A stretch of DNA of 64,000 nt from Candidatus Obscuribacterales bacterium (GCA_965228855.1 CBDDIJ010000005.1:635856-699855); one strand, 5' to 3'. Shown: positions 10,195-54,419, numbered from the stretch's first letter. A program made the numbers and translations. Notes: a model not told the origin generated them from the sequence alone.

Positions 10195-11682
10195 ATGAGC
10201 ACACTCTCCATCGCCCAGAGACTGGAACGTCTCCCGATTACCTCATACCAACGCATGATCTTCGTCGTGATTGCGACGGCCTGGTTTTTCGATTGCCTGG
10301 ATGTGGCAATGATGACGTTTGTGCTGTCATCTATCAAACAGGAATTTGCGCTGAGCGCCGAGAAAGCGGGATTACTCGTCAGCATGAGTTTTCTGGGCAT
10401 GTTCATCGGCGCAGGTTGCGCGGGCGTTCTCGCAGACAAATACGGACGCATCGTAGTGTTCCGCGCAAGCATCATCATCTGGGGTTTAGCGTCACTGTTT
10501 TGCGCGCTCTCGCCGAGCGTGGAAGCATTAATGTTTTTCCGCGTTCTTCTCGGAGTCGGCTTAGCTATGGAGCTTCCTGTCGGACAATCGATGATTTGCG
10601 AATTCGTGCCGGCGAGAGTACGCGGCAAGTACGTCGCGCTACTTGAAGGGATGTGGCCGGTTGGCTTCATCGCGGCCGGCTTGCTGGCGATGTTTATAGT
10701 GCCGAGCTTCGGATGGCGAGGAGCATTCGTTGCAGAGGCTATTCCCGCAATATTCGTGCTGGTTATTCGCAGAATGGTTCCCGAATCGCCACGCTGGTTG
10801 GCAGAATCCGGACAGACGGCTAAGGCGACTGAAGTCATCTGCGTCATTGAAACAAGAGTTGAGGAAGCGCTCAGGCGCAGTGGAAAAACACAATCCTCTT
10901 TATCCGGTTCCATCGGGGAAACCATTACAGATAACCATGGCGGCGGTGTGGCCGTTCTTACAAAACCGGAACCAACCGTTTCCTTGGCAACAATTGAAAA
11001 CGAAGTAAGCGAAGCGGTTTCAATTCCAGATTCAGATCCGAACGCAACATCACCGTGCGGCGATGGAAGTGGACCAGACCGAGCCTCGATCAAAACCATT
11101 TTCGGCAAGCAGTACATCAAGAGAACCGTGATGGTTTGGATGCTCTGGTTTTTCGCGCTGCTCGGCTACTACGGACTGACCTCATGGTTCGGCGCGATGC
11201 TTGAAGCCAAAGGCATGGACTTTGCCAAGTCGACGGAAAACATCATCAACATTTCACTTGCGGGAATTCCAGGGTTCTTCACTGCCGCATGGTTGGTTGA
11301 GGCGTGGGGTCGAAAGCCAATGATGATCACGAGTTTGTTGTGCTGTGCGGTCAGTGCTTACTTCTATGGCACCGCCAATGATACCAACTCCATTTTCATA
11401 TTCGGATTGATCATGCAGTTTTTCATGTTCGGTATGTGGTCTGTGATTTACGCCTACACGCCTGAACTGTATCCGACCCACGCTCGCGCCACTGGTTCTG
11501 GCTTCGCAAGTTCAATAGGTCGAGTGGGTGCCTGGCTCGGTCCCGTGCTCGTTGGCATAATTTTGACGAAAAGTGGACAGCAAGGCGCGTTCATTATGGG
11601 AGCAAGCGCATTTGTGTTGGCCGCTGCAGCTGTTTTCTTCCTGGGAGAAGAGACGAAAGGCAAAGTACTGGAAGAGATTTGA
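10195..11682 (+). CDS. MFS transporter (sugar-porter/SV2-like) with extended central loop
   Basis: Begins MSTLSIAQRLERLPITSYQRMIFVVIATAWFFDCLDV... 12-TM layout, with GR(I/L)xxF and PESPRWL signatures. The central cytoplasmic loop is about 115 aa. The upstream 106 codons of the track ORF have no transporter-like sequence. Confidence 0.9.
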   Translation: MSTLSIAQRLERLPITSYQRMIFVVIATAWFFDCLDVAMMTFVLSSIKQEFALSAEKAGLLVSMSFLGMFIGAGCAGVLADKYGRIVVFRASIIIWGLASLFCALSPSVEALMFFRVLLGVGLAMELPVGQSMICEFVPARVRGKYVALLEGMWPVGFIAAGLLAMFIVPSFGWRGAFVAEAIPAIFVLVIRRMVPESPRWLAESGQTAKATEVICVIETRVEEALRRSGKTQSSLSGSIGETITDNHGGGVAVLTKPEPTVSLATIENEVSEAVSIPDSDPNATSPCGDGSGPDRASIKTIFGKQYIKRTVMVWMLWFFALLGYYGLTSWFGAMLEAKGMDFAKSTENIINISLAGIPGFFTAAWLVEAWGRKPMMITSLLCCAVSAYFYGTANDTNSIFIFGLIMQFFMFGMWSVIYAYTPELYPTHARATGSGFASSIGRVGAWLGPVLVGIILTKSGQQGAFIMGASAFVLAAAAVFFLGEETKGKVLEEI

Positions 11683-11800
11683 GCCTTCGGTCAAAATTTG
11701 GGAACCAAAAGTTCACACTTGCGATGCTAGTCTAAGCATCTTACTAGGCCCGAACCCTTTTCTATCGCTTGCACTCAGCCCTGCGTCTGAGGAATTTTTG

Positions 11801-14059
11801 ATGGCTTCCGTTGAGAAACAACCGCAACAGGATTCAACCGACCAAAAGGCCGGTTCATCCAATGCGCTCGAGCAGTCGCAAGCGAACGTATCGCGGTCCA
11901 TGTACGACGAAGTCAGACAAAGCGGCCCCGAGAGAAAGGAGCAAGACGGAAGCGTAGACGCAAACGAGAGACAAACCGAGGGCGAGGGCGGGGGCGAGAA
12001 CGCTAACGATAAACCGGAGTCGGCTTCAGAATTGATGCTGGACGAAATCTGGAAGTCGACCTCGGACACGGTTCAAAGCGTGTCCAAGATGCTAAGCAAG
12101 GGAATCTCGCCAGCAATAGCGGAAAAATTTGGAGCACTGTCCTTTTTCGACAGTAACGAACCTGGCGGCGAGTCCGGTCTGGAAGCGGCAACACAACAAG
12201 CAGAACAAGTTGATAGAAGCGCCCTGGAATCGAAACCCGAATCGAACGGTTCCGGACCGAAGAACTTGGAAACGAGCGCTTCTGACTACGGGCTGGGCGA
12301 GGCGCTTTCGGACCTGGGTGACTGGGCATCGAAGGCATTCAATGATTACGTCGCAGAACCTTTAAATGATTACTTGAACATCTCTGACATTTTCGGCTCG
12401 GCAAGCGAGTGGAGCTTCGATCGGTCGGATCTGATTCCGCGCAATCAGGTGGACGAGAACCTGAGGTCGCTCAATGATTCAGCTAGAAATGAATTCGGCG
12501 ACGTAGAGAAAGAGATAAACAGAGCAGACAAACTCGATCTGGAGGGTGCCACCGATAGCGGTACCACAAATGCGGGCAGCAGCGGTCTGGAGCTGCCAGG
12601 AGACGCTTACGCTGACGGATCAGTAGAGATTGGCGGCAGCATGGTTACAGTGATGAGAACGCCCGGCGGCGACACGTTCCTCAAAAAGGGCGATGAAGTA
12701 ATTGCGCAGCAACGTGACGACGGCTCCTACAACCTTGCGCTAAAGGACGGTTCCACACTCGATCTTAAAATGTCCAGAGGGGATGACGGCAAATATAGTT
12801 TAGACAAGATGGAACGTTTCGATGCCGATGGCAAGTTGATGCAAAAGCTGGACGATGGCGTTTTCTTCAACTACAACTACGATGCGCAGGGTAACAAAAC
12901 CAGCGTGAATGCGGCGGCCGACCTTGAAGGTCCGCTGTCACAAGAGAAGCTGGACAAGATACGAACAGAGCTCGGAGACCGGGGAGCTGCCGCTCTCCGC
13001 GTGCAAAACGGCGACGGCACCACAAACCAATTATTGCTTCAATCGCACGACAGCAAGACACATTCCTTGACGGACGTGGATAAACAGAACGCCCAGATTT
13101 TCCACGACGGAAAAGAATATAGATTGAATGCTGCTGACCAACTGGCACTTGTAGGAGCAGATGGAAAGGAGCAGGAAGTTCCGAGCGAGATCGACGAAGC
13201 GCGGCAGAAAGTGCAAGAGCATTTAAAGGAACTCTATAAACAGCTTGGCGAGCGCGCAAGAGGAGAACGCGTTGAAGTAGACGGCGTTGGCGTAAGAAAA
13301 AACGACGACGGCTCGTTCGACATCGCGATGACCGACCCGATCACCGGCAAAGAGGAAGGTCACATTATTCTTCCTGCAGACAAGAGCGACGATCTACAGT
13401 TAATAAAGCCCGATGGCGAGAAAGCGATTATTAAACGAGAAGGCGGTTTAAGCATCGACGGCGGAGATGGAAAGACACTCGTAGATTTTAATCCCAATTC
13501 TGGCTTGAAAACGGATCAGTTCAATCTCGATGGAAGCGGATTGAAAAGCTTGGAAGATGGCACTCTGTTGAAACCAGACGGAACGCTGACAGACGCCGAC
13601 GGAAATACAATCAGCAGTGTCGGCGACGAAGAATCAGAGTGGTGGAATAAACCGGAGTGTGCCGATTGCGAAGAGCAAAAAGAAAACAGCAGCATCTCAC
13701 AAGCTACGACAAGTGAGGTAAATACTCTAGGGAGTATCTCGCTTTCCATCTCACGAAGCGGCAGCCCTGCAGCGATAACTGTCGCTAAATCGATAGCATC
13801 GGAAGCTTTTGGCGTAGCGAATGCTGCTCTCAGCGCTCTCGGCAACGACCTCCTGAACTCAATTCCGATTCAGCTATCGCTCAGCATTGCACAAACAGCT
13901 TTTAGTCAGGCAGAACGCTCCGAAAGAACCACAACCTACGCTTCGCGAGCTGGAATCTCGGATGCGACTAGACTTGCTGATCTGAACAAAATTGGAACTC
14001 TCTCGTCCACGACCTTCAGCCCGGAAGAGTTCGTTCGCGATCGCATGAAGGCTGCGTAG
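11801..14059 (+). CDS. hypothetical acidic 752-aa protein with degenerate DG/YD-like repeats
   Basis: ATG at 11801 is preceded by GAGGAA. There is no signal peptide. The N-terminal third is D/E/S/G-rich. The middle carries repeated ..DGS/DGK.. beta-hairpin-like motifs, including FFNYNYDAQGNKT (YD-repeat-like). The C-terminus is S/A/L-rich. Confidence 0.6.
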   Translation: MASVEKQPQQDSTDQKAGSSNALEQSQANVSRSMYDEVRQSGPERKEQDGSVDANERQTEGEGGGENANDKPESASELMLDEIWKSTSDTVQSVSKMLSKGISPAIAEKFGALSFFDSNEPGGESGLEAATQQAEQVDRSALESKPESNGSGPKNLETSASDYGLGEALSDLGDWASKAFNDYVAEPLNDYLNISDIFGSASEWSFDRSDLIPRNQVDENLRSLNDSARNEFGDVEKEINRADKLDLEGATDSGTTNAGSSGLELPGDAYADGSVEIGGSMVTVMRTPGGDTFLKKGDEVIAQQRDDGSYNLALKDGSTLDLKMSRGDDGKYSLDKMERFDADGKLMQKLDDGVFFNYNYDAQGNKTSVNAAADLEGPLSQEKLDKIRTELGDRGAAALRVQNGDGTTNQLLLQSHDSKTHSLTDVDKQNAQIFHDGKEYRLNAADQLALVGADGKEQEVPSEIDEARQKVQEHLKELYKQLGERARGERVEVDGVGVRKNDDGSFDIAMTDPITGKEEGHIILPADKSDDLQLIKPDGEKAIIKREGGLSIDGGDGKTLVDFNPNSGLKTDQFNLDGSGLKSLEDGTLLKPDGTLTDADGNTISSVGDEESEWWNKPECADCEEQKENSSISQATTSEVNTLGSISLSISRSGSPAAITVAKSIASEAFGVANAALSALGNDLLNSIPIQLSLSIAQTAFSQAERSERTTTYASRAGISDATRLADLNKIGTLSSTTFSPEEFVRDRMKAA

Positions 14060-18192: not shown

Positions 18193-21100
18193 CTACCATT
18201 GGAGGGCTACGGTTCTCGGCTTTGTGTGCAGTTCGTAGGCAGGACCGTTTGAAGTCATCTGCATGATCACTGCAGTTGTTTTCAGAACGCCGGCGCGAAC
18301 CTTCCGCGCTTCGCGGTGCTGCGATTGCACGATTGCGGCCAGCGGTTTGATCGCCTGAATGGCAGACGGAACGGAGAATTCACTGGTGAATGCTTTGTGC
18401 CCGTTGCCCAGATCATGGTGAGCCAAACCGCGGTGCATGACGGCTTCCACCGGATTGATTTCCGCGAACTGTTGGACGCTCGAATGCGTGACGATCGCAT
18501 GCTTTCCAGGTGAGAGCGGAATGCTTCTGCCGCCGGCTTCGATCACGACGCTGCGTTTGTGCTGATCATTAACGTCGTAAACCGATAAGTGATTTTGATC
18601 GACAACGACCATCGCCACTGAATCAGCAGCAATCTTAACTCGTCCCTTGGGTGTCACAACCGTGGTATCGGTTTTCGGCACAAAGAGAACGCTACCACTA
18701 TCCATCGTGACGCACTGATTGTGCGAAACCTTGCTCAGAGAGCTCATCAGGCTGTCACCGGATAGCTCGAGGTCGCTGCAGAGTTTGGCATCGACTATCG
18801 TAGCCGTCGGTTCCGAAGTCGACATATAGGAATCATCATGGCCGGGACCACCCGAAGGCACCGTCGCCAGGGTGACACCGCTAGCGGTGCTGGTCAATGA
18901 GGCAAGGCTATCTCCGCCGCTGAACGTTCCGGTGGCATTATTCAACGAGATCAATTGCATCGCTCGCATCTCATTATTCACTGAGAAAGTCGCGACTGGA
19001 TTCGTGATTGCGATCGGCGACATCGTCACCGAACCATCCAGTGAATTCGTGGACAGGTCGTTAAGGGCATTGAGCGTACCGGCTGCGGAACCGGCATTGC
19101 CGAAGGTCCGGATTGTCATCGGTGTTCCTTCTGCTACCGGCGGATCTGCAGTGATGATGTTATTGCCTTCGAAGACTATTGATTTCGGATTGAAGGTACT
19201 GACGTAAACATCAGCGCCCTGTGCGGTGAACACAATACCTCCGGAAACGGCTTGAGCCTTCTTGCCGCCGAAGAGAACGCTACCGCCGTTTTCAACGATG
19301 GTCACGAACTTCTTAGGTGTAGGCGTCTTACGACCTGGTGACTGTGGTGCGCCGAGTACGATGTTGATGTTTCCGAGACCTGGAGTCTTGGCGTTGGTGA
19401 GAACTGAAGAACCATTTCCGAAAACGATGCTATCGCGTTTCTTCGTTGAACCAAGCATCGTGATGTCGATCTGGTCGTGAGCCAAGATTGTGATGCCATC
19501 TGCGATGTCGAGAGTGTCTTGAGTCGCGGTGACAGCGAAGGCACCACCAGTCGAGGTGATGTTCTGGGTCAGATTCAAACCACCGTTTGCTGTCAGATTG
19601 ATGTCACCAGCTGCAGTGATGGCAACGAAGTTCACACCGGCAGTCGATGCGCTGGAGACAAAGAATCCATTACCCGCCGAGCCACCGATTGAAGAAACAT
19701 TCGCCGCTACAAGGAATGGATTATTGGCGTCCGTTCCAACATTTCCACTGACCGAGTTCAACAACAAAGTCGGTGTATTCAGCGTTCCGGTGATGTTGGT
19801 CAGGTCACCGTCCGTGGTGAGTGAAACGCTGGTAGTTCCATTAATCGTGCTGGTCAGGTCGAACGCTCCACCGGTGGCTAATGCGACAACCTGAGCGCTG
19901 TAGTCACCTCCGGAGACGAGATCGCCTGCGGTCGAAACATCAAGAGTGTTTGTCGCGCTGCTGGCGTTCAAAGTCGAGGCTAATGTGTTGGTGTTGTTCA
20001 CAAACACATTTTGACCTTCGACCTGGAAAGTGTTCGCGTTGATTTGCAGTCTGTTCGCGGCATCGACGCCGAGTGACGCGTTGGTATCGAGAACCACGAT
20101 ATCGCCGTTTATGACACCTGCACCGGAGCTGGTCACACCGTCGTCTGCAAAGACATTACTCGTACCGGTTGCGCCAATCGAGTTACTGACAGCTACAGTT
20201 CCATCAGCGACATTAATAGACAACGTACCAACAGTGAAGTCAGAATCAGTTGTCACAGCGCCACTGGTGACGTTGACATTCAATACATCCACGCCTTGCG
20301 AGCTGAGGATCAAGTCGTTAGCTTCGTTGATAGTCAGGGTCACGGCGTTGGCGGTGGTGGACAGGCGGTCGACGTTCGTGCTCAGGGTCACCGGACCGGT
20401 GGCGAAATCGAGGAAGAGCGTTCCGCCCTGTAGGGTGCCTGCAGTCTGCGTGATTGTTCCAGCCGAGCTGAGCTCAACATAGTTGCTACCTCCGACGCTG
20501 GCGTTGAGAACGATATCGCCGGCGGTGGTCGTCAATTCGACAATGCCTATGTTGAAAGCGCTCGTCGCCACAAGCGAGCCACCTGAGCTCACAACCAGGG
20601 ACAAGTCCGAGCCAGTTATTGCGCCAAGGTTGAGGGCGTCAACATCAGATACATCGACGGTACCCAGTCCACTGCTAGAGGCGTTGAGAGTAGCGACAGC
20701 CGTGCTGCCGAGAGTCGCCACGCCGTCGCCGACATTGACAGTCAGATTGTTGGCGCTTATCAGTCCTGGAGTCTGGCTGATCACATCGGTCGCTCCCAGC
20801 GCACCTGTGAGCACGACATTAGCCAGTCCGGCGTCAATCGTGGTGACAATCAAGTCGCCAGCAGTCTGGGCGCCGACTCCGAAACTACCAGAGAGCAATA
20901 CGCCATTCTGGACAGTGATTGGTCCTCCTACGATTGTCGGAGTCGCGACCGCCATGTTGACGTTTCCACTGGCGGTTCCACCGACAGTATTGATGGAGCC
21001 GACGGTGATCCCGCCCGGTCCGGTGATGTTGACATTGCCACCATTCACTGCGCCCGTGGTGTTGATCGTGTGAAGCACGATAGAGCCATCGTTCAGCGTG

Positions 21101-24100
21101 CCTGCGTTGGCGACAGCAGTGAAATTACCGCCGCTGCCAGCCCCGCCGTTCAGATTGATGGTGACGTTGGTCAAGTCGATTGAACCACCGTTGGCATTCA
21201 CTCCGGTTATCGTGAACAAGCCGGGGCTCTGGATCTGACCTGCAGTCGCCGGTGTGAAATCATAGCCCGCCATGAGCGTGAGTGAGCCACTTCCAGTTGG
21301 TCCTGAGAGGTTGATAGAGGTGGAGCCGGTCGTCGTGATATTTCCGGCAGCTAGAATTGCCAGGTTCTGACCGACGAATACCAAATCTGACGGAAGAAGT
21401 ACATCTCCGTTGCTATTAGCAATAGTGCCATTGTTACTGCAAACTATTACGAGCGGATTACCTGTGATAATGCCGTCGAAAGTCAGGTCGCAAGCATTAA
21501 TGGTAGTTCTGTTCACACCAGTCACAACTGCACCGGCATTCACGATGAAATTGTCTGGTTCCGCACCGACAGTAAATGCAGCCTCACCGGTTCCGTTCAA
21601 CAATATGTTTCCGGAGAGATTGATACCGGCTGCCGAGAGGACAGTGAAACCATTGGCAGTCGTGTAGGTGCCGCCGGTCATCGACAGCGCGCCGGCAGTG
21701 TTGAAGACGTTAATCTGATCGAAGTTGGCGCCGACAAGACTGGTCAGATTGCTAGTACCGAGACTCAACGTGCCAGTACCCGAAACGGCTCCATTCAAAA
21801 GTATGCTGCCACCGTTAGTGGTGTCGAGCGTGAAGAAGTCGTTTCCGGCGGTGGCCTGAACGACAACGGTTGAAGTTCCGGCGTAAACGATCGAGACATC
21901 ACCTCCACCTGTGGCGTTCGCAGTCAGAGAGAGAGGATTGGCGCCATTAGTGACGATGAGCTCATTGCCAGATCCACCGATGCCGCCGGAAGCGGCCGTC
22001 ACTGCCAGGTCTCCCGCCGTCAGAGTTCCAGAAGTTTGTTGGATGAAACCGCTTCCACCAGACGTGTCAATCGTCAGCAAAATAGCAGCATCGATGTCGG
22101 CGTCGATTGTCACATTTCCACCAGCGTTTACGATATTGACAAACGAGGCATCAATTGCTCCGGAGATTAGAACGTCTCCAGAAGCGATTTGAGATGCATT
22201 GAGAGCAAATGTTCCGACATCCGCTGATGTGACGTCGATACCATCGCGCTCATTGATAGTCAGTATCTGTGTACTGCCTCCGGTAGCAGTCACTGAGTCG
22301 ACATCTGTTACGAGCGTCACTGGACCGGTCACGAAATCAACGTTCAGAGCGCCACCGATGACGGTGCCGGACGTTTGAGTCAGACCCGCACCGGAGACCA
22401 ACGTCACAGAGTTGGTGCCCGTCACATTCGCATCGAGAGTGAGGCCGGTAGCACCATCAAGACGAACATCCGCGCCGGTCACTGCGATGTCCACCACGAG
22501 ACTGAGATTCGAGCTCGCAATGAAGGTATCCGTAGCCGCAGCGATTGTCTGTAAGTTCAACGCCGAGGTACTGGTGAAATAGACGGATCCGCCTGCACTG
22601 AGTGATGCGGTTGAAGCGTTCACCAACAGATAATCGGTAGATTCGCCGATCGAACCGAGCGCAGATGTGAGGTACAAGTCAGGCGAGTTCAATCCACCCG
22701 TGATATCAGCGTTGACGATGTCGTTCTGCGCATCCAACCGAATCTGGGTCGTAGCTGTCACAGCACCGTCAAGGTCGAACTTGTCCCCTGATTGCAGACG
22801 GACAGCGTTACCGGAGATGGCTCCGGTGCTTGTCAGAACACCGCCCGCGATGGCTTGGAAAACTTCTCCTACTGCGTTTGAAGCTGCCGAGCCACCAGGA
22901 CCGAAATTCATAGCATTTGCATCTTGAACGAAGACAGAACCAGTCGTGGCGTTCGCTGTTATGTTGTCGACATCGACCTGTAGGAAATCGAGACCAACAC
23001 CGATGTCGCCTCCAGTGGAGGTCAAATTGAGTTGCACGACTGGGATGCCGGCTCCTGAATCCAGACCTCCGACTATGTTAGCGTTCAAGATCGAGCCTGC
23101 CGACGAGAGCGTGATGCTGCTGGTTCCTCTGGTCAATCCACTGAGAACCAGGTTGCCAGTAGTTGCGGTCAGAGATACGTAAGCAGCAGAGACGGTACCG
23201 GACGAGGTCAGGTCGTTCACTGCGGTCACGTTGAAAGTACCAACCGCTGACGAAGCCGCCAGATCAACCGAATTAGAGTCGCTGACGAACGCATCTCCGA
23301 CAGATTGAATCGACAGGACAGCAGTATCCACCAAAACACTATTGCCGGAAACACCGATGGGACCAACGGTAGTGACAAGATTAATCCGTGGAGAGACGAT
23401 GTTGTTCATTCCGTCGGCAGCTACGATTCCGTTATCAGAAGATACTGTGACACTTGTCGTACCGGTCACAGCAGCATTTATCTGAACATATTGAGATGAT
23501 CCGGCTATAGCTGTGAAGTCGACGTCAGAAGCATTTACTGTCGAATCGACGGTGATCAATCCGTTCGCATGTAGACTGAAGACTCCCTGAGCGGAGGAGG
23601 CACCACCAACAGTGACAGCGCCGGCGTTCTCAACCCAGACGTTACCGAGTGCAGCATTCAAAGTCACTGTTGTGACGTTTAAAGAAAGCGGATCTAGAGC
23701 AGTTCCGATATCACCGTTGGTCGATGTAGCAACTAAGGTCGGCGTGATCAGCTGACCGAGACCCACGCCATTGAGAATGTCGTCACCGGAAGTGAGCGTA
23801 ATGCTGGTAGTGCCGCTTATCGCATTATTGAAAGTGAAACCGCCTGCCGTGGCTGTCAGGCTAACTGTCGCAGCATCGATAGTGCCATCATTAGAGATGT
23901 TCACGGGCGCTGAGGCTGTAAACGAAGTTGCCGTGGAGGCTCCAGGTCCGATGTTCATAGAGCCCGTGGTGTCGGTCAGCACAACTGTCGTAGCCGATGC
24001 ACTCACGTTTTGGAAATCAGCGGTGACATCTATAGTCGCGCCGGCATTGGTGGCGTTAAGGACAATAGTTGGTGCCGATAGCGGGTTGGCGAAGTTGGCC

Positions 24101-27100
24101 GTCAGGATATCATTGAACGAAATCAACTCAATTCTGGAACCGATCGTCACGGCGCCTGGAATTAAGATGCCACCATTCGCCGAATTCAGATACAAAGAAT
24201 CCGCCACTACAGTCTGGGCAGCCGGCACGGTAATCGTACCAGTTGACCAGAGAGCCAGGTCGCCGGTCACGGTGGACGACCTGAGGTCTATAGCACCACC
24301 GGTGTTGTTGAGATACGCATTATCAGCGCCAGCACTGATCGCCAGAGCGTTGAATGCGAATGCGTTTGCCTGACCTCCCGCCGCGCCGATGTTCCCGTCA
24401 GACTGCAGCACAAGCGATTGAACCGGCAGGCCCACTCCACCATCGAGCACGCCCGAAACTGTGCTTCCGTTGATATCTCCTGCCGAGGTCAAAGAGATTG
24501 TGCCGGCAGCGCGCACTCCACCGTCGAGATCGAAGACACCATTCGTCGCGGTCAAGCTCACCGAGCCGGTCGTCGACTGTATCAATGCGCCGGAGACAGA
24601 GCTCAAATTCTGATTGGCGGTAACGGAAATATCGTTCGCAGCCGAAGAGGCGAGGTAAATCGAAACGCTGTTGGCATCGGAGTATGTCACCGAGCCGGCG
24701 GAGTTGAACTGCAGTGAATCTACATCGAGCACAGAAACATCTATGTCGCCGGACGTTGTGGTGAGATTCGCAGCCAGAACATCGAAGGTGCCGGTCAGAT
24801 CCGCATCAACGATGCCGTTTCCAGAAGTTATGGCAATCGTAGTCCCAATCACCGAGCCCGGAATCTGCACATTCGCGGAAGTGGACGTCAAGTTGGTTAC
24901 CGGTGAAGAAATCGTGCCGGTGACAACGAGAGCGCCAGTTGCATCAACCTCGAAGACCGAACCGGAGAAATTAGTTCCGACGATGTTGAGCGCCCCGGTT
25001 CTGGTGGCATAAACAGAATTTCCCGGAGCTAACAAACTGCCAGCCGATGCCGAAAAGTTGTTTGCGTTTACGACAAAGGAGTCTCCCAGCAATCCGACAC
25101 TTCCAAACGTTGATGTAAGATTGAGAGTATCGGTAAATTGCAGACCGGTTGTAGCACTGTTGGTTATTGGACCACCAGAGCTCAACGTGACGCTGTTGGT
25201 ACCGGTAGTGGTGCCAGTGATTGTGAGGAAACCGCGCGGAGCAGAGAGCAGCAGGTCATTTGCACTCACTGTACTGGCGAGACCAATTACAATGTTTCCG
25301 AACTTCAGGTCCTCATCAGGTCTGGCGAGGTCGAATGTTCCAGTGACGACGCTGTTACCAATTAGATTCAAATCCGGCGAACCGCTGATAGCGTCTGCAA
25401 AAACATATGCTGAGCCACCCGTGTTGACGGTCAAATTGAGCGACTTCGTATTCAAGCGAGACGACGCGTCGGTTCCGATATCGCCGTTCGTGGAGCTGAG
25501 CGTCAAGAATTGCGCGCGGATCTGCGCTCCATTCACAGTATTCATGTCGGTACCGGACGACAAGGAGACGTTCGCGCCATACATATTGGCACCGATCTCC
25601 ATCAGTCCTCCGGCTGTCAAAGATATGTTCGTGATCGTTGGCGGAACGCCAAAGTCTCCAGTCCCGATAAGCCCGGAAGTGGTCAGATCATCGTCAGCTG
25701 TGACTATGAAGTCTAGTGAAGACGTATTAGTTCCGTTGATATTAACCGAGTTCGGGTCATGAACCGAAACGGTTCCGCCCTGGAGATTCAGATTGACGGC
25801 ATCGATATCGAGAGGATTTCCCATTCCTGAACCGATGTTCGCAGCTGCTTTCAAATTGATTTGGTCAGCGCTCAGAATGTTCGGGTTATTGTTTAAAGTG
25901 TTATCGTCGATAGAAGTCGCTGAGTCCAACGTGATCGACTGATTAGCAGTGAGAAGACTGAGTACCAAGATATTGCCGACGGTTGACTTGATAGTGACGT
26001 TCAGAGCATCAACAGTACCACCGAAAAATACCGCGGCATCACCTGTGATATTAAAGTTTTGCGGTGTCGTGACCGTGTTTGGAATTCCCTGAAAGCTCGC
26101 AGTGCCGGTTGCGGTAATGGTGATGTTTCCTGTGGTAGTCTCCAACGACTTGAGAAACAACACATCACCTCCAGTCGAAGTGATGTCGATAGAACCGAAT
26201 GCTGAAATTGTTCCGATACTGCTCAAGGCACTGATAACATCATTAGCTGTGATTTTGACATTGCCTGCGGTGCTGGTTATATCTCCGGCTCCAATTGACA
26301 TAGGACCATCTAAACTGATGTCACCGGGTGCTGTAATGTCGCCCAGAACTACCAGACTGTCATCGCCGGACAGCTTGACGTAGCCGCCGGTTGAGGTAAC
26401 TGGTGCACCTGGGTTCTGGATCATATTTGCCATCGATGTCAACTCGATGTTACGCCCAGCTGTCAGCGGAGCATTGATATCAAAACTGTTGTCTGTTGAC
26501 ACGAAGAAGTCGGTACCTGCGGACGAACCGGCCACAAGCTGAGTATCTATAGACGTCGCAACGTTGGAGACATACACGCCATTAGCAGCGATGAGCAACA
26601 GATTCTCGGCATTCGTAACCACCCTAGAGCCGAGTGAACCAATGCTACCGTTTGTCGATGACAGCGATAGGCTTAGGACTGGATCACCTAAATTGTTCAG
26701 CGCAACCGTTCCAAGCCCGTTAGCAGGAATGGTATTACCTGACGTGAGCGCAACATTTACCCCATACACCGCCCCAGTCAGTCCAAGCGAGCCGTTGGTT
26801 GCTGTGAGCGTGACGTTCGGAGCAGCAATGACACTGCTGGCGGTGCTCAAAATATTATTGGCCGCAATCACTGTGATGTTTGTGTTTGCCGACGCGTTAG
26901 TTATTGTTACCGAGTTCGGATCAACAATGTAGATGTCTCCAGCAGTCGCGGTGGCGCTGAGTCGATTGGCGTCGATATGCAACTGATTGCCCACTGAGCC
27001 AACCGACCCGGAGAATGACAAAAGATTCAATTCCGGCGACACGATCGTAGCGCCAGTGAAACTAGAATCGACTATCGATGCATTGGAAGAAAGGTTAATC

Positions 27101-29829
27101 TGCGAGCTGCCTGTGATCACGCTACCTAGAGAGAGCGAGCCTGCAGAGCTCACAAGCTGAACTATATCTGCGAAAATATTGCTCGTGCTCGAAATATTTC
27201 CGGCGGCGTTGGTCTGAAGTAGATTCGTCACGAACGTGTCGCCACCAGCAAAATTGATGGCCCCGGTACTGCTTATAACCGCATTGTTTGCGGTGACTGC
27301 CACATTGCCACCTGTCAAGCGCGCTGTCACAGTCCCTGTATCAGAGGTCAAGTAAGTTTGAGGAGATGTCACTTCGACGCCCAGCGCGGTATCGATGTTG
27401 CCATTTGCACGCAAGCGCACATCCGTAGTGCCGGTAACATCAGCATCTAGCTGAATCGCACCTGCGGTTGATCTCAAAACCACGTGGTCAGCAATGTGAG
27501 GAACAGCATTAGAAACTGTGAGAAGCCCTGTTGAAGTTAGGTCAGCGGTACCACCGGTCACAAAACCGGAAAGTGAGACATCATCAATGTCGCTAACGTA
27601 GAACGATCCCGTCGGACTATTCACGGCAAGATCATTAGCATCTATCCGAACGCGATTCGATGCGGAACCAATATCTCCGTTAAACGACTCAAGTTCTACT
27701 CGGTCGGAGACCAGTAATGAAGCATTGCCACCACTTACGACTCCGGCGTTCCCGCTGAGATAAATGGAGTTTATAAGAGACGTATTAGTCAACACGACTC
27801 CTGCTCCCAGAGTGATGATGCCATCAGCTGTGATCGATATACCACCCTGGCTTGTCAAATTCTTAGAGATGATGACATCACCGCCGGTAGGCGATGCACT
27901 GTAGGTGAGATTGTTTGGTGAGGTGATATTGCCTGCTGCATCAAAAACAATCGGACCACCAGTGGAAACTGGTTGCGCGGTCACAGCAGAAATCAGTCCG
28001 GATTCTAATACTCCACCTGTGGTATCAATCACACCCAGGCGTATGGCGGTCGTGCTTTGAGCTCCAGCAACGAGGAATACGTCACCATTGGTCCCGGTTC
28101 CGCTTCCACCTGTTCTTATGGTCGTGTTGGAAACGTCAATTCTGCCGGAGTTAAAGTTGAGACCGCTGAAGGCGAACATGGAGACATCGCCACCATTTGC
28201 GTTCCCGCTTGTCCCTCTCGAATCTATCGTGACACCGCTTCCCAGAAGGATACTTCCCCCTGATGAGGAAGCCAATCCTGTCAGGGTTGTTCCGGATGCG
28301 ACAGCACCATTGGTCGATGAAACATTTGTGCCACCAGCAGTCTGTTCTGCGCCAGCAGCCATGAAGATATCGAAGCCGCCTGTCGTTTGTGCGGTACTTA
28401 TCGTGATGTTGTTGGCGCTCGTAATGTTTCCACTTGCAATTATCGCGAGCTTCTCGTTGACGGAAATATCTCCGTTGATGTTGATGTTTCCGGCATTGTT
28501 CTTATATGTCGGGTCACCAGTCAGGCAAACGTTTCCAATATTGAGATCGTCAGTCGACGCACTCAGGTGAGCCTCAGAACCGGTTTGATTTACAGTCCCC
28601 GTCAGCTCGCCGACATCGGCACGCATGATGCCGCCGCCGGCGTTCAAGTTCAACTGTCTCGAAAAATAGTCTCCACCGCGAAGGTTTGTGTTCGAAGAAC
28701 CAACATAATCGGCTGCTCTCACGTTGATGTCGCGACCAGCCGAGAAGGTTCCACCAGCTCCATTCACGTTCAACTCAGCTGTTGAAGAACCATCTATGTT
28801 TATGTCACCGCGCATTGCTTGAACGGCGCCGGAGTTGTTAATCGAAGAAGCGTTGAGATTTACATCGCCCTTCGCATTTACGTTTCCAGTATTGGTCAGA
28901 ACATTGCCGGCACTTAAGGTCAGCGTTCCCCTGGACGTAATAGTTCCGTAGTTTGAAAGATTTCCGCTAGCTAGCAGTCCCAAACTGCTGTCGGCGGTGA
29001 TGCTGGCGCCGAGTTGGTTGACGATGTCGTCAGCGCGAATAACTCCACCGTTGCGTCCGTTTCCATAGGTGTAAACGGTACCCGCGTTATTTAAGTCACC
29101 GAGCAATTTGAAGTCGGAGCGCTTGCTGAAGTCACCATATGTAGTGACGTTCACAGGAACCGTTAAATCGGTAGCGCGCAGTACATCGTTATTTGCCGTG
29201 ATAGCACCGAGGTCCACCTCGCCGCCTGTCGCAGCTCCCTTACCGTCGATGACAATCTTTTGCGAGCTGCCGGAGAGAATTTGTTTAACAGCTATGTATT
29301 CGGCGGCGCTAACCTGTGAACCGGCAGCAACAGTTTTTGTCTCGCCACCAACATTGATCTCGACTGATAGCTTATTGTCGAACAGGTTGCGACCAAGTGT
29401 GATGTTTCTCACATCAGAACCAAGGTCCAGATTGACGCCATTGCGAAGATTCACCAGGGTACCATCGCCGCCCTGCACTGACTGATTGATGACGCCCTGC
29501 CGCTCCAATCTACGACTGAGGCGATCCATTCGAATCGTGTCTACTGAGTTCGAAACCGACGGGACGGCTAGATTGTTTCCGCCGCCTCCTATTGTAGGAA
29601 CAGCAATCGTGTTGACTGCCGCTCCCCGATGTTGTCCGAATTCCTGGCGGAACATCTGACGAGCAGCCTGTCTATCGATGCCAGGATTCTGTTCTCTAAA
29701 GTCGCGGAAAGATGGTCGATCGACGTCTGCGGCATGCGCTTGCATAGCCGACGCGAACAACGAACCACTTATTACCGCGATCCATTGTTTTACGAATGAC
29801 TTTCTTACTTTGACTGCCTTCTTACTCAT
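18193..29829 (-). CDS. giant secreted beta-helix-repeat protein, paralog 1 (3878 aa), unclassified family
   Basis: Uninterrupted 11,637-nt ORF. ATG has GAGGA 8 nt upstream. Signal peptide is MSKKAVKVRKSFVKQWIAVISGSLFASAMQAHA|AD. The conserved N-domain, Cys-free repeats, Cys module (INACDL...VIVCSNNG) and C-terminal FecR-like segment ending ...KPRTVALQW are collinear with the two neighbours. Confidence 0.9.
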   Translation of the reverse strand: MSKKAVKVRKSFVKQWIAVISGSLFASAMQAHAADVDRPSFRDFREQNPGIDRQAARQMFRQEFGQHRGAAVNTIAVPTIGGGGNNLAVPSVSNSVDTIRMDRLSRRLERQGVINQSVQGGDGTLVNLRNGVNLDLGSDVRNITLGRNLFDNKLSVEINVGGETKTVAAGSQVSAAEYIAVKQILSGSSQKIVIDGKGAATGGEVDLGAITANNDVLRATDLTVPVNVTTYGDFSKRSDFKLLGDLNNAGTVYTYGNGRNGGVIRADDIVNQLGASITADSSLGLLASGNLSNYGTITSRGTLTLSAGNVLTNTGNVNAKGDVNLNASSINNSGAVQAMRGDINIDGSSTAELNVNGAGGTFSAGRDINVRAADYVGSSNTNLRGGDYFSRQLNLNAGGGIMRADVGELTGTVNQTGSEAHLSASTDDLNIGNVCLTGDPTYKNNAGNININGDISVNEKLAIIASGNITSANNITISTAQTTGGFDIFMAAGAEQTAGGTNVSSTNGAVASGTTLTGLASSSGGSILLGSGVTIDSRGTSGNANGGDVSMFAFSGLNFNSGRIDVSNTTIRTGGSGTGTNGDVFLVAGAQSTTAIRLGVIDTTGGVLESGLISAVTAQPVSTGGPIVFDAAGNITSPNNLTYSASPTGGDVIISKNLTSQGGISITADGIITLGAGVVLTNTSLINSIYLSGNAGVVSGGNASLLVSDRVELESFNGDIGSASNRVRIDANDLAVNSPTGSFYVSDIDDVSLSGFVTGGTADLTSTGLLTVSNAVPHIADHVVLRSTAGAIQLDADVTGTTDVRLRANGNIDTALGVEVTSPQTYLTSDTGTVTARLTGGNVAVTANNAVISSTGAINFAGGDTFVTNLLQTNAAGNISSTSNIFADIVQLVSSAGSLSLGSVITGSSQINLSSNASIVDSSFTGATIVSPELNLLSFSGSVGSVGNQLHIDANRLSATATAGDIYIVDPNSVTITNASANTNITVIAANNILSTASSVIAAPNVTLTATNGSLGLTGAVYGVNVALTSGNTIPANGLGTVALNNLGDPVLSLSLSSTNGSIGSLGSRVVTNAENLLLIAANGVYVSNVATSIDTQLVAGSSAGTDFFVSTDNSFDINAPLTAGRNIELTSMANMIQNPGAPVTSTGGYVKLSGDDSLVVLGDITAPGDISLDGPMSIGAGDITSTAGNVKITANDVISALSSIGTISAFGSIDITSTGGDVLFLKSLETTTGNITITATGTASFQGIPNTVTTPQNFNITGDAAVFFGGTVDALNVTIKSTVGNILVLSLLTANQSITLDSATSIDDNTLNNNPNILSADQINLKAAANIGSGMGNPLDIDAVNLNLQGGTVSVHDPNSVNINGTNTSSLDFIVTADDDLTTSGLIGTGDFGVPPTITNISLTAGGLMEIGANMYGANVSLSSGTDMNTVNGAQIRAQFLTLSSTNGDIGTDASSRLNTKSLNLTVNTGGSAYVFADAISGSPDLNLIGNSVVTGTFDLARPDEDLKFGNIVIGLASTVSANDLLLSAPRGFLTITGTTTGTNSVTLSSGGPITNSATTGLQFTDTLNLTSTFGSVGLLGDSFVVNANNFSASAGSLLAPGNSVYATRTGALNIVGTNFSGSVFEVDATGALVVTGTISSPVTNLTSTSANVQIPGSVIGTTIAITSGNGIVDADLTGTFDVLAANLTTTSGDIDVSVLDVDSLQFNSAGSVTYSDANSVSIYLASSAANDISVTANQNLSSVSGALIQSTTGSVSLTATNGVFDLDGGVRAAGTISLTSAGDINGSTVSGVLDGGVGLPVQSLVLQSDGNIGAAGGQANAFAFNALAISAGADNAYLNNTGGAIDLRSSTVTGDLALWSTGTITVPAAQTVVADSLYLNSANGGILIPGAVTIGSRIELISFNDILTANFANPLSAPTIVLNATNAGATIDVTADFQNVSASATTVVLTDTTGSMNIGPGASTATSFTASAPVNISNDGTIDAATVSLTATAGGFTFNNAISGTTSITLTSGDDILNGVGLGQLITPTLVATSTNGDIGTALDPLSLNVTTVTLNAALGNVWVENAGAVTVGGASSAQGVFSLHANGLITVDSTVNASDVDFTAIAGSSQYVQINAAVTGTTSVTVSSDNGIVAADGMNNIVSPRINLVTTVGPIGVSGNSVLVDTAVLSIQSVGDAFVSDSNSVDLAASSAVGTFNVTAVNDLTSSGTVSAAYVSLTATTGNLVLSGLTRGTSSITLSSAGSILNANIVGGLDSGAGIPVVQLNLTSTGGDIGVGLDFLQVDVDNITANATTGSVFVQDANAMNFGPGGSAASNAVGEVFQAIAGGVLTSTGAISGNAVRLQSGDKFDLDGAVTATTQIRLDAQNDIVNADITGGLNSPDLYLTSALGSIGESTDYLLVNASTASLSAGGSVYFTSTSALNLQTIAAATDTFIASSNLSLVVDIAVTGADVRLDGATGLTLDANVTGTNSVTLVSGAGLTQTSGTVIGGALNVDFVTGPVTLVTDVDSVTATGGSTQILTINERDGIDVTSADVGTFALNASQIASGDVLISGAIDASFVNIVNAGGNVTIDADIDAAILLTIDTSGGSGFIQQTSGTLTAGDLAVTAASGGIGGSGNELIVTNGANPLSLTANATGGGDVSIVYAGTSTVVVQATAGNDFFTLDTTNGGSILLNGAVSGTGTLSLGTSNLTSLVGANFDQINVFNTAGALSMTGGTYTTANGFTVLSAAGINLSGNILLNGTGEAAFTVGAEPDNFIVNAGAVVTGVNRTTINACDLTFDGIITGNPLVIVCSNNGTIANSNGDVLLPSDLVFVGQNLAILAAGNITTTGSTSINLSGPTGSGSLTLMAGYDFTPATAGQIQSPGLFTITGVNANGGSIDLTNVTINLNGGAGSGGNFTAVANAGTLNDGSIVLHTINTTGAVNGGNVNITGPGGITVGSINTVGGTASGNVNMAVATPTIVGGPITVQNGVLLSGSFGVGAQTAGDLIVTTIDAGLANVVLTGALGATDVISQTPGLISANNLTVNVGDGVATLGSTAVATLNASSSGLGTVDVSDVDALNLGAITGSDLSLVVSSGGSLVATSAFNIGIVELTTTAGDIVLNASVGGSNYVELSSAGTITQTAGTLQGGTLFLDFATGPVTLSTNVDRLSTTANAVTLTINEANDLILSSQGVDVLNVNVTSGAVTTDSDFTVGTLSINVADGTVAVSNSIGATGTSNVFADDGVTSSGAGVINGDIVVLDTNASLGVDAANRLQINANTFQVEGQNVFVNNTNTLASTLNASSATNTLDVSTAGDLVSGGDYSAQVVALATGGAFDLTSTINGTTSVSLTTDGDLTNITGTLNTPTLLLNSVSGNVGTDANNPFLVAANVSSIGGSAGNGFFVSSASTAGVNFVAITAAGDINLTANGGLNLTQNITSTGGAFAVTATQDTLDIADGITILAHDQIDITMLGSTKKRDSIVFGNGSSVLTNAKTPGLGNINIVLGAPQSPGRKTPTPKKFVTIVENGGSVLFGGKKAQAVSGGIVFTAQGADVYVSTFNPKSIVFEGNNIITADPPVAEGTPMTIRTFGNAGSAAGTLNALNDLSTNSLDGSVTMSPIAITNPVATFSVNNEMRAMQLISLNNATGTFSGGDSLASLTSTASGVTLATVPSGGPGHDDSYMSTSEPTATIVDAKLCSDLELSGDSLMSSLSKVSHNQCVTMDSGSVLFVPKTDTTVVTPKGRVKIAADSVAMVVVDQNHLSVYDVNDQHKRSVVIEAGGRSIPLSPGKHAIVTHSSVQQFAEINPVEAVMHRGLAHHDLGNGHKAFTSEFSVPSAIQAIKPLAAIVQSQHREARKVRAGVLKTTAVIMQMTSNGPAYELHTKPRTVALQW
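19510..28420 (-). repeat. degenerate protein-level repeat body of giant gene 1 (long ~95-100-aa units, a ~20-aa-period block at ~25900-26470, interrupted by the conserved Cys module at ~20825-21520)
   Basis: Recurrent anchors such as L.L.S..G.IG....L.IDA..L......G.VYV.D.NSV. The composition is N/T/S/G/A/V/D/L/I-rich with almost no K/R/E/aromatics and no Cys outside the module. Boundaries are approximate. Confidence 0.7.
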
Positions 29830-29924: not shown

Positions 29925-32900
29925 TTACCATTTGAGTGCCACCGTCCTTGGTTTGGCGTGGAACTCGTACGGAGTGTTGGAAGACAACTGCATGATGATT
30001 GCGGAAGTCTTCAAGACACGCTCCTTAACTTTCTTCGCCTGACTGTGATTCGAAAGAATCATCGCCGAAAGCGGTTTAATACATTGAATTGCCCCAGGAA
30101 CGGAAAATTCGCTCGTAAACGCTCGATGTCCGTTGCCGAGCTCATGGCGGCTCAAACCTCGGTGCATGATCGATTCAACTGGATTGATGTCGGAAAACTG
30201 CTCGACACCAGCATGAGTTATGACTGCGTGGCTACCGGGCGATAACGGTATGCTACGACCGGCCGCCTCAACAACTACGCTGTTTTTATGCAGATCGTTA
30301 ACGTCGTAAACGGAGAGATGAGTGTCTTCTACTACCACCATTGCGACTGCGTTTGCAGCGACTTTGACCTTGCCCTTCGGCGTGACGACAGTCGTGTCGC
30401 TCGTCGGAGCAAAGAGAACACTGCCGGAATTTACGGAGACAACAGCGCTATGTTTCATCTTCTCGACACCGTTGAAACCGACATCGCCAACAAATTCGAT
30501 ATCGCTGCAGATGCTCGCATTGACCATCGTTCCCTGAGGCGAAGTCGTAGTCATGTATGAGTCATCGACTTGCGAAACAGCTACTGTACTCAGATCGCCG
30601 CTCGTGAGAGCGCCGGAAGCGCCAGATGTAATCGTTGCGTTGTTCATAGATATGTTCTGGACACCTTGAAGAACGGACGCTCCCAAACCGCTCAGGCTGG
30701 TAGAGTTCGCGGGTAGCAAGTTCAGCGCTGTATTGAGGGAGGAGATGGAACCAAGTTCGTTCGAAATTGTTGCGGTTCCAAGAGCACCAGGTTGGGAATC
30801 TCCGCCAACACCGGCAAATTGACGAATAAGAACCGGCGTTCCTTCGGCAACTGGAGGGTCAGCAGTTATAGTGACGTTGCCCTCGAATACAATCGATTTC
30901 GGATTGAAGGTGCTGACATAAACATCTGCGCCCTGCGCGGTGAACACGTTCCCTGGCGCCGCAGCCTGAGCTTTCTTACCGCCGAAGAGCACGCTTCCGC
31001 CATTCTCAACGATCGTTACGTTCTTCTTGGGCGTCGGAATTTTGTTACCGGGAGATTGGGGAGCACCAAGGACAATGTTTATATTGCCGAGCCCAACTGT
31101 TTTCGCATTCGTCAAAACTGATGAGCCCGCACCGAATACGATCTTATCCCGCTTCTTAACCGTTCCGACTTGAGTTATATCGATCTGGTCATGAGCCAGG
31201 AGAGTAATACCATCTGCAATATCAAGCACGTCTTGAGTGGCTTGAATGGCGAGCGCGCCACCGGTCGATGTGATGTTCTGAGTGAGGTTCAATCCCCCGT
31301 TTGCCTTCAGCGATATATCGTCACCAGCGGTGATCGCAACAAAGTTGACTCCACCGGTTGCGGCACTTGTGACGAAGAAACCACCACCTGCGGTTCCACC
31401 TATAGACGTAACGTTTGCAGCCACCAGGAAGGGGTTATTCGCGTCGGTACCGACATTGCCGCTTACTGAGTTAAGGAGTAAAGTCGGAGTGTTCAGTGTT
31501 CCTGTGATGTTGGTCAGGTCACCATCCGTGGTGAGCGATACGCTGGTCGAGCCATTTATAGTGCTGGTGAGATCGAAGGCTCCACCAGTCGAGAGAGCGA
31601 CTACAGCCGCGCTGTAGTCGCCGCCGGAGACCAGATCTCCAACCGTTGACACATCTAGAGTGCCTACAACTGAACTCGCGTTGAGCGTTGACGCTGCAAC
31701 GTTATTGTTGTTGACGAAAACATTTTGGCCCGAAACCTGGAAAGTGTTGGCATTGATTTGCAGCTTATCCGAGGCATCCACACCAAGCGCGGCATTTGTA
31801 TCCAGAGTGACGGCGTCGCCGTTTATCACTCCCGTGCCGCTAGATGTAACGCCATCATCGGCGAACACGTTTGTGGTTCCTGTAGCTCCGATGCTATTTG
31901 ATACGGCAAAGGTTCCGTTTGCAACATTGACCGTGAGGTCATCGACCGTGAAGTCTGAGTTCGTAGTGACAGCGCCGCTAGCTACGTTTACAGTCAGGAC
32001 GTCAACGCCCTGAGTGTCCAGGATCAAGTCGTCGGTCTCATTGATAGTCAGATCAGTAGAGCCGGTTCCCGCGTTCGACAACAGTGTCGAAACGCTCGTG
32101 TTCAAGGTCACTGGTCCGTTGTTGAATGTGATGCTGAACTGACCACCACCAACAACGCCGCTTGTTTGAGAGATTGTTCCATCCGCGTTGAACGTGATGA
32201 ACGTAGCGCCGGAGACATTGCCGTTCAACAGTATGTCGCCGCCTGCTGACGTCTGAAGATTCAGATTATCTATGTTGATGGCGTTGGACGTGGTCGAAAT
32301 CGTTCCGCTTGCGCTTACATCGAGATCTTGCGTGGCTCCTACGATGTTATTGAGCACAATCGGACCTGTTTGGTTAAGCAAACTAATCGTGCCGCTTCCA
32401 TTGGTATTCAACTCATTCAGTCCAGAGTTGGATATTGTTGCCGCACCATCACCGACATTTACGTTCAAACGATTGGCGTTTACGCTCTGCACGTCGATAT
32501 TATCGAGTGCGCCGAATGCACCTAGAAGGGTCACGTCCCCAGTCCCGGCAACGAGAGAGTTAACCGTCAGATCGCCACTGGTAGCCGTACCGACTCCAAA
32601 ACTTCCAGTAAGAACTAAACCGTTTTGAACCGTTACCGGACCACCGACTATGGTCGGATTCGCCACGCTCAGTGCTACATTCCCGCTGTTCGTTCCACCG
32701 TTGGTGGTGACCGAGTCGATCGTAATACCGCCAGGAGCAGTAACCGTCACGTTGCCACCATTTATGGTGCCCGTAGTGTCGACGGTACCAAGGATGACGG
32801 AACCATCATTCAACGATCCGGCATTTGCAACTGCCACGAGGTTGCCACCACTGCCAGTGCCACCTGAAAGAACTATATCGACGTTAGTTAAATCAATCGA

Positions 32901-53933: not shown

Positions 53934-54419
53934 ATTTCCCCCGACTGGAATGTATGCTAAAGCGAGAAGACATGCGCCTTTTCCAGGCACAAACCTACTC
54001 GAATCTATTTTTAATTGGTCGTAGTTAACCGCGACACACGTCAAACCGAACCACAAGTCCGTCAAGCGCCGGATTCGAGTCGAGCCACGACTGTCATCCC
54101 AGGTCGACGCCTGCGGAAACTGGGTCAAAAGTTACCATGCTGGAGATCCGGTAATCTTAACTCCACGTGCGCAGGCTTTACGTGACAATGCTCACCTGCA
54201 CTGGGGGTACGGTGAAAACTCGAGCAAAGGATTGGGAAAATTTAAGATTAAACTCGGTTTCGGGGCGTTAGAAGTGCGCAATTAAGTTCGTACTTGTTAC
54301 ATTCTGACAACAGCGGCGATACCGTTTCTGATACCAGCACATACATGCATGCATCGAAAAATCAAATCGGTTCGTGGCCCGTACCTTTAATAGATAAACA
54401 CCAAGAACTTGACCACCAC

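Follow-up and report, generated by a model that had tools for sequence, protein, structure and literature searches.

Giant β-helical surface proteins with conserved domains embedded in them are a familiar class. TpsA exoproteins of two-partner secretion (TPS), among them FhaB, HMW1, EtpA, and HxuA, are very large, Cys-poor fibres that carry a signal peptide and are built of β-helical rungs of ~20 residues, while CdiA is a giant FHA-like fibre in which a distinct conserved domain is embedded between long repeat regions. In Obscuribacterales, uncultured non-photosynthetic relatives of cyanobacteria, cell-surface biology is, to our knowledge, essentially unknown. Here, we describe three giant tandem genes, g1, g2, and g3, in a stretch of 64,000 nucleotides from a Candidatus Obscuribacterales bacterium (GCA_965228855.1, CBDDIJ010000005.1:635856-699855; the window), and a module of ~265 amino acids (aa) that lies within each of their products. 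The module stands out as a conserved domain in its own right and is more than filler, but the proteins have other conserved parts besides it, and it is neither their unique core nor, in all likelihood, a catalytic one. It is a new unannotated domain, set in a new lineage-specific variant of the familiar giant surface-protein class. As to what it does, we lean toward a rigid segment of a haemagglutinin-like solenoid fibre that derives from the N-terminal domain, sets the register or stabilizes the fibre or serves as a common docking site, and is stapled in this clade by a dispensable disulfide.

The three proteins share with TpsA their very large size, Cys-poor composition (they are rich in Gly, Thr, Asn, and Ser), signal peptide, and apparent ~20-residue rungs. 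The g1 product is laid out as a signal peptide, an N-terminal domain (N-domain), a variable stalk, the module, a post-module region, and a C-terminal domain (C-domain). Its first residues, read from the g1 sequence only, form a Sec-type signal peptide, MSKKAVKVRKSFVKQ-WIAVISGSLFASAM-QAHA/A, with cleavage predicted after AHA; together with a β-helical passenger, as suggested by AlphaFold2 (AF2) and Foldseek, this would be a TpsA-type trait. Whole g1-g3 proteins and their sub-pieces match nothing in Pfam or NCBIfam, and g1 finds no PDB sequence even at E ≤ 10. The window proteins fall under the threshold of the Pfam haemagglutinin repeat PF05594 (g1 reaches only E 6.6); 17 of 26 family members match this model (best E 1.2e-7; four of the five inspected lie above the gathering score), and the relatives' Fil_haemagg matches fall at the equivalent of g1 aa ~270-340.

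Other marks of the described systems were not detected. The TPS domain (PF05860) has no Pfam match in the whole proteins, in their N-terminal 500 aa, or in the 26 relatives, and an N-domain profile of 26 members finds no match in PDB, and no TPS domain, at E ≤ 10. No TpsB (Omp85/POTRA) gene or conserved neighbour is present among the open reading frames (ORFs) of the window, nor in the sequence that flanks the relatives L006 and L008. The C-domain of the family is conserved and globular, unlike the prodomain or toxin of TpsA. The C-terminal 12-strand β-barrel translocator of autotransporters (type Va secretion, T5aSS; PF03797) has no Pfam match, and the C-terminal model is mixed α/β; RTX adhesins of type I secretion (T1SS) differ in that g1 carries a signal peptide and that no HemolysinCabind or other Pfam match is found. 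CdiA has a similar layout, with a conserved domain within long repeats, but here a VENN/pretoxin motif is absent, the C-terminus is conserved and not polymorphic, and the embedded module is solenoid-like, may occur in several copies, and has no sequence relation to any solved structure.

The first-pass annotation of the window had singled out a Cys-bearing module by its motifs (NACDL, GNPLV(I/V)(V/N)C, GTIAN, LTLMAG, FTP, TITG, and GG(S/N)I(D/N)L), and translation finds these where it had placed them: at aa 2770-3002 in g1, 2781-3011 in g2, and 2955-3195 in g3 (counted from the ATG). A hidden Markov model (HMM) was made from nine copies. Real copies of the module receive 285-351 bits and the stalk scores below zero; the only other place that the HMM matches is the N-domain segment just after the first shared Cys, at 25-42 bits (34-44 bits for the g1 segment). 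Indels are few (1.9 events per 100 columns in the module vs 7.8 in the stalk), and only 5.3% of the module residues are charged (DEKRH). Across the family, conservation is confined to G, N, A, I, L, P, T, and Q; among charged positions an Asp ranks highest, at 72%, and no acidic, basic, or His position exceeds this value. A profile of 20 module copies finds no PDB sequence even at E ≤ 10.

Where did the module come from? The N-domain segment of g1 aligns with it in blastp at 31% identity (E 2e-17), and hhalign of the module against the N-domain profile gives a probability of 98.8% (E 4.5e-17) over 206 columns, with C435 of the N-domain paired with the second module Cys. This profile homology indicates that the module arose within the protein, as a second copy of the last ~230 aa of the N-domain.

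The AF2 model of g1 aa 2740-3010 is all-β (pLDDT, the predicted local distance difference test, 78; predicted template modelling score, pTM, 0.84), with three short strands per ~20-residue rung. A conserved loop, FTPATxGQ, protrudes from the model with low AF2 confidence, as expected of an excursion from a solenoid. Foldseek searches of the module against PDB and a viral library return no significant match and mostly generic β-helices, with TPS secretion domains at the head of the list; the best, to the TPS domain of EtpA (E 0.045, template modelling (TM) score 0.2), is itself non-significant. Structure prediction, which the first-pass annotation had proposed, thus yields a predicted all-β fold without a significant Foldseek match, and the profile search of PDB is empty. 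The C-domain model is poor (pLDDT 52, mixed α/β). Its top Foldseek matches are to FecR-type anti-sigma periplasmic domains (4m0n/4m0h, E 2e-4, probability 1.0) and to PupR (6ovk, E 1.5e-3), with TM-scores of ~0.3 on this pLDDT-52 model, and there is no Pfam FecR (PF04773) match; because the model is poor, the FecR-like match is a lead only, suggestive of anchoring in the periplasm or at the outer membrane.

If the module is so well conserved, are its Cys residues the reason? As the first-pass annotation had it, Cys is scarce: g1, g2, and g3 contain five, five, and six residues (g3 counted from the ATG), and four alignment columns are common to all three (g1 C435, C2780, C2797, and C3684), two of them within the module. 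Across 102 module copies, both Cys of the pair are present in 36, neither in 65, and a single one in 1; after clustering at 60% identity, the corresponding numbers of clusters are 19, 59, and 1. The pair is retained despite loss of the GNPLV motif (e.g., in P0013, P0015, and P0024), and elsewhere Ser, Asp, Pro, Asn, or other residues stand in its place. The spacing of the two Cys, 17-19 residues, compares with a predicted rung of ~20 residues, and in the AF2 model of the g1 module C2780 immediately precedes the first strand of a rung, while C2797 immediately follows the third; since they flank the strands of the rung, the two would occupy one and the same corner of neighbouring rungs. Most likely, the pair forms a disulfide that staples the coil in this clade and is dispensable in others. 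Insect antifreeze β-helices provide a parallel: their solenoid is cross-linked by Cys residues that are spaced by roughly one coil and so occupy matching positions in neighbouring rungs. Here, however, there is a single Cys pair per 265 aa and no regular Cys ladder, and the bond is proposed from covariation only.

The N-domain counterpart of the module contains a near-invariant motif, (I/L)G..C(L)TGDPT(Y/F).N. Of 119 relatives with the motif, 102 have the Cys, and 72 of these 102 have no other Cys in the N-domain. A lone Cys beside an invariant Asp-Pro in a secreted protein could engage in an intermolecular disulfide or in covalent chemistry.

Overall, the proteins are 52.5% (g1-g2), 42.5% (g1-g3), and 43.0% (g2-g3) identical. 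In two 100-column windows over the module, identity between g1 and g2 rises to 84% and 77%, and that to g3 is ~50%; over the whole module, g1 and g2 are ~77% identical, and up to 90% in the best 50-column stretch. The near-identity of g1 and g2 that the first-pass annotation reported is therefore real, but it is not specific to the module: g1 aa 3218-3510, outside it, is 83-88% identical to g2, g1-g2 identity is 62-92% in blocks from ~aa 2600 to 3560, and other g1-g2 blocks match or exceed the module. The N-terminal ~560 aa and C-terminal ~200 aa show three-way conservation equal to or above that of the module (0.48 of the N-domain columns are invariant in all three). When three-way invariance is scored in windows of 230 residues, the module falls within the top 11% and is the strongest interior island.

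The same distinction applies to the codons. The examples that the first-pass annotation gave (VIVCSNNG and (K/R)VRKSFVKQW) are correct letter for letter, and codon choice at conserved module residues is random: g1 and g2 use the same codon at 66 of them vs 62.7 expected from random draws (z = 0.5). Yet saturation is a property of the genes, not of the module: the proportion of synonymous differences (pS) lies at 0.76-0.81, with 0.76-0.78 gene-wide, and for each of the three gene pairs practically all 100-column windows give ~0.75-0.8. Within the module, g1 and g2 are 67% identical in nucleotides, with a longest exact run of 14 nt; because codon choice is random and the shared runs are this short, recent g1-g2 duplication is excluded, and recent gene conversion was likewise rejected on the codon evidence. 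With pS at or above 0.75 nearly everywhere, dN/dS between the paralogues is not computable, and dN alone, codon-identity statistics, and dN/dS between orthologues were used in its place. Which paralogues are most alike changes from one stretch to the next: at aa ~190-370, g1 resembles g3 most (75% and 68% vs 59% and 58% for g1-g2), g2 and g3 are the nearest pair at aa ~940-1035 and ~1800-1895, and g1 and g2 from ~aa 1940 on, through the C-terminal third. Such switches point to ancient exchange between paralogues that preceded synonymous saturation, and this mosaic history in turn means that part of the g1-g2 identity is genealogical and not module-specific.

Orthologues come from a degenerate-pattern scan of GTDB species genomes, which yielded eight loci, all in Candidatus Obscuribacterales/Obscuribacteraceae or in the cyanobacterial metagenome-assembled genome (MAG) SZAS LIN-3. 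The MAG ACE_CYA3 has the same tandem triplet, with 97% identity to g1 in the module, and two further paralogues on another contig. Its orthologue pairs with the window genes are unsaturated (dS 0.19-0.32), and the paralogues are saturated, so the duplication is old; the earlier view of an old duplication kept by purifying selection, with no recent conversion, is borne out. Whole-gene dN/dS (ω) is 0.145 for g1, 0.137 for g2, and 0.047 for g3. When the three orthologue pairs are pooled and region boundaries set by HMM, ω is 0.054 in the module vs 0.128 in the stalk (Fisher p = 2.6e-5), 0.067 in the N-domain, 0.044 in the C-domain, and 0.079 in the post-module region. By gene, the module and stalk values are 0.061 vs 0.173 in g1 and 0.079 vs 0.180 in g2. 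In an unpooled scan of the orthologues in 150-aa bins, the module looked like its surroundings; the difference emerged with pooling and HMM boundaries. Thus, the module is under more constraint than the stalk in two of the three genes (g3 is taken up below), and not under more than other conserved parts. The first-pass annotation, which proposed dN/dS relative to the surroundings as a check, took the module for a functional core, as opposed to filler repeat; the second half of this statement holds, given the HMM scores, the few indels, and the low ω, but the module is not the one core of the proteins, because the N-domain, C-domain, and post-module region are equally constrained and 24 relatives with both terminal domains do without the module.

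Comparison with ACE_CYA3 also reveals mosaic patches, at 25789-26679 (aa 1051-1347) and 21739-22188 (aa 2548-2697) in g1 and at 39327-39776 and 36633-37079 in g2. The g1 patch at aa 1051-1347 is 67% identical in nucleotides to ACE_CYA3, with dS 1.3-1.5, vs dS 0.03-0.06 in the preceding 300 codons; the stalk patches keep ω ~0.2. Donors were found for none of them among all sampled paralogues, which suggests recombination with unsampled divergent alleles.

The family is far larger than a first search implies. A word-indexed homologue search finds one partial match to the module and none to the C-domain, but this is no sign of rarity because the index misses a low-complexity, Gly/Asn/Thr-rich solenoid family. 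An exhaustive HMMER search of representatives of 50%-identity clusters, with a query composed of the N-domain, module, and C-domain of g1, finds ~2000 relatives: 1994 representatives pass E ≤ 0.001 and 551 pass E ≤ 1e-30, mostly via the N-domain, the part that the family conserves most widely. All members with a name are annotated as "hypothetical protein" and come from Obscuribacterales or SZAS LIN-3, sizes range over 1-8 thousand aa, no Pfam or NCBIfam model describes the family beyond the weak haemagglutinin repeats, and a literature search on it found nothing relevant.

When the ~150 best-scoring representatives are scanned with local HMMs (counts are out of 151), a clear domain grammar emerges. 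The N-domain stands by itself in 58 proteins, mostly of ~1000 aa; it is combined with the C-domain but no module in 24 (of the 74 that carry both terminal domains) and with one to five modules and the C-domain in 50. At least one module copy at 60 bits or more is present in 70 relatives, and the C-domain in 87; the paralogues L004 and L005 have three module copies each, L007 has two, and L006 and L008 have one. The distance from the last module to the C-domain is fairly constant (median 616 aa; interquartile range, IQR, 537-712), whereas that from the N-domain to the module ranges widely (median 1213 aa, IQR 804-1750). Many members of ~1000 aa consist of the N-domain only (P0029-P0090). In Candidatus Obscuribacter sp. 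MP9P1, a gene for a 1064-aa protein with a borderline Fil_haemagg match (L006 13460-16654, minus strand) adjoins the giant gene. Such short proteins may cooperate with the giant ones.

These results can be assembled into one picture. The three genes would be an old, stably kept triplet that encodes Sec-exported β-solenoid fibre proteins of a large unannotated family. Each protein would start with a signal peptide and an N-domain of ~560 aa with haemagglutinin-type repeats, followed by a fast-evolving, indel-rich, recombining stalk of variable length; zero to five modules, ~600 aa more, and a globular C-domain of ~200 aa would complete the family plan. The module, having arisen by internal duplication of the distal part of the N-domain, would be structurally exacting, with ~13 solenoid rungs, a Gly/Asn ladder, and the single protruding loop; in an otherwise tolerant stalk, it would most likely act as a rigid, in-register folding or stabilizing element or offer a docking platform that the paralogues share. 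The coil would be stapled in this clade by two Cys at matching corners of successive rungs; other clades would manage without. The near-identity of g1 and g2 at saturated codons would then reflect long purifying selection together with a closer ancient kinship of the two genes over the C-terminal third.

How does this picture fare against others? The conserved module could instead be a domain that binds a ligand, receptor, or partner, much as the receptor-binding domain in the middle of CdiA does; the fibre would display it, and it would stay constant because all paralogues bind the same target or the same anchoring machinery. Its standing as the only interior island conserved across the three paralogues and two further ones in ACE_CYA3, its fairly fixed distance to the C-domain, and the conserved protruding FTPATxGQ loop speak for such a domain; but charged or aromatic residues are very few, conservation falls mainly on Gly, Asn, and aliphatic residues, as is typical of solenoid packing, there can be up to five copies or, in 24 of the 74 relatives with both terminal domains, none, and the module duplicates part of the N-domain. 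On this evidence, dedicated binding is possible but unlikely. A catalytic or self-processing element acting through Cys or the GNP/GDP motif (by autoproteolysis, a thioester, or a cross-link), among the roles that the first-pass annotation had entertained along with a processing site, has in its favour that two of the four shared residues of a rare amino acid lie in the module and that the homologous CLTGDPT of the N-domain, with its Asp-Pro bond, is nearly invariant. However, replacement of both module Cys in most copies and the lack of any His, Asp, Glu, Lys, or Arg conserved above 72% make catalysis or Cys-dependent processing improbable; add to this that the GDP of the N-domain is replaced by GNP in the module and that no Pfam, NCBIfam, or PDB sequence family matches, and we consider this role highly unlikely. 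Finally, the conservation might be a by-product of conversion between g1 and g2 or of a late partial duplication. The mosaic history, with g1-g2 blocks as similar as the module or more so in a gene whose N-domain is closer to g3, lends itself to this view, yet the random codons and short shared runs make any conversion ancient, the module is conserved also in g3, in L004-L008, and in dozens of distant relatives, and the stalk shows a higher ω between orthologues than the module does; as a sole cause, it is largely refuted, and we give it very little credence.

Several points nonetheless weigh against the structural role that we favour. Conservation of the module in co-resident paralogues fits binding of a shared partner equally well; in g3, ω does not differ between module and stalk (0.037 vs 0.046); the AF2 model of the module is based on four sequences only; and both the disulfide and the structural role are deduced. 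Moreover, the homologous Cys of the N-domain is highly conserved without a partner, so this position may do more than form an intramolecular staple. A bolder proposal builds on the latter point: the module and its N-domain parent would make up a hitherto undescribed functional unit, part of a secretion or fibre system peculiar to non-photosynthetic relatives of cyanobacteria. There, the near-invariant lone Cys of CLTGDPT, along with its counterpart in the module, would mediate covalent chemistry (intermolecular disulfides that link the three paralogues into a heteromeric fibre, or self-processing at Asp-Pro), and the module would serve as a docking or registration site for that assembly. We regard it as rather improbable.

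Table 1. Positions of the three giant genes and of their domains and Cys motifs in the window
Feature	Gene	Position	Strand	Remarks
Gene	g1	18193-29829	minus	ORF and translation, 3878 aa
Gene	g2	29925-41576	minus	ORF and translation, 3883 aa; paralogue of g1
Gene	g3	41676-53933	minus	4085 aa counted from ATG (MSKKSVRV)
Module copy	g1	20809-21597	minus	aa 2745-3007, boundaries by HMM; HMM 338 bits; encloses 20825-21520
Module copy	g2	32526-33311	minus	aa 2756-3017; HMM 339 bits
Module copy	g3	44361-45182	minus	aa 2918-3191; HMM 324 bits
Cys pair	g1	21439-21492	minus	C2780 (21490-21492) and C2797 (21439-21441), 17 residues apart; putative inter-rung disulfide
Cys pair	g2	33156-33209	minus	C2790, C2807
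Cys pair	g3	44994-45047	minus	C2963, C2980
N-terminal domain	g1	28150-29829	minus	aa 1-560; includes signal peptide, aa 1-33
Module-like segment of N-domain	g1	27856-28530	minus	aa 434-658; starts with VCLTGDPTYKN
Module-like segment of N-domain	g2	39576-40202	minus	aa 459-667; C460
Module-like segment of N-domain	g3	52008-52640	minus	aa 432-642; C433
Lone-Cys motif VCLTGDPT	g1	28507-28527	minus	C435-T441; C435 at 28525-28527
Lone Cys of N-domain	g2	40197-40199	minus	C460
Lone Cys of N-domain	g3	52635-52637	minus	C433
C-terminal domain	g1	18196-18792	minus	aa 3680-3878; ~200 aa, non-repetitive
C-terminal domain	g2	29928-30521	minus	
C-terminal domain	g3	41679-42272	minus	

The genes are separated by 95 bp (g1/g2) and 99 bp (g2/g3). 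The mechanical ORF of g3 reaches up to a TTG at 54128, which adds 65 upstream codons (53934-54128) and two Cys; the orthologous ORF (L003) begins at the ATG of MSKKSVRV and is also 4085 aa long, so the extension is probably untranslated, and the TTG is probably not the true start. Two more large ORFs, both on the plus strand, lie in the window at 1100-3526 (808 aa) and 11573-14059 (828 aa); neither has a Pfam match, and a local HMM search finds them unrelated to the giant family. The product of the former resembles a multi-pass membrane protein, judged from its N-terminal residues.

No concept is overturned by these observations; their value lies mainly in annotation and as an evolutionary case. 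Annotators gain three new domain models, and experimenters gain defined targets: the pair of Cys, the motif with the lone Cys, and the patches of the stalk that are hypervariable. The triplet is a clean example of tandem paralogues retained long enough to randomize every synonymous site. For Obscuribacterales, a large family of secreted fibre proteins is now defined with its grammar, an N-domain, a variable stalk, zero to five modules, and a C-domain.

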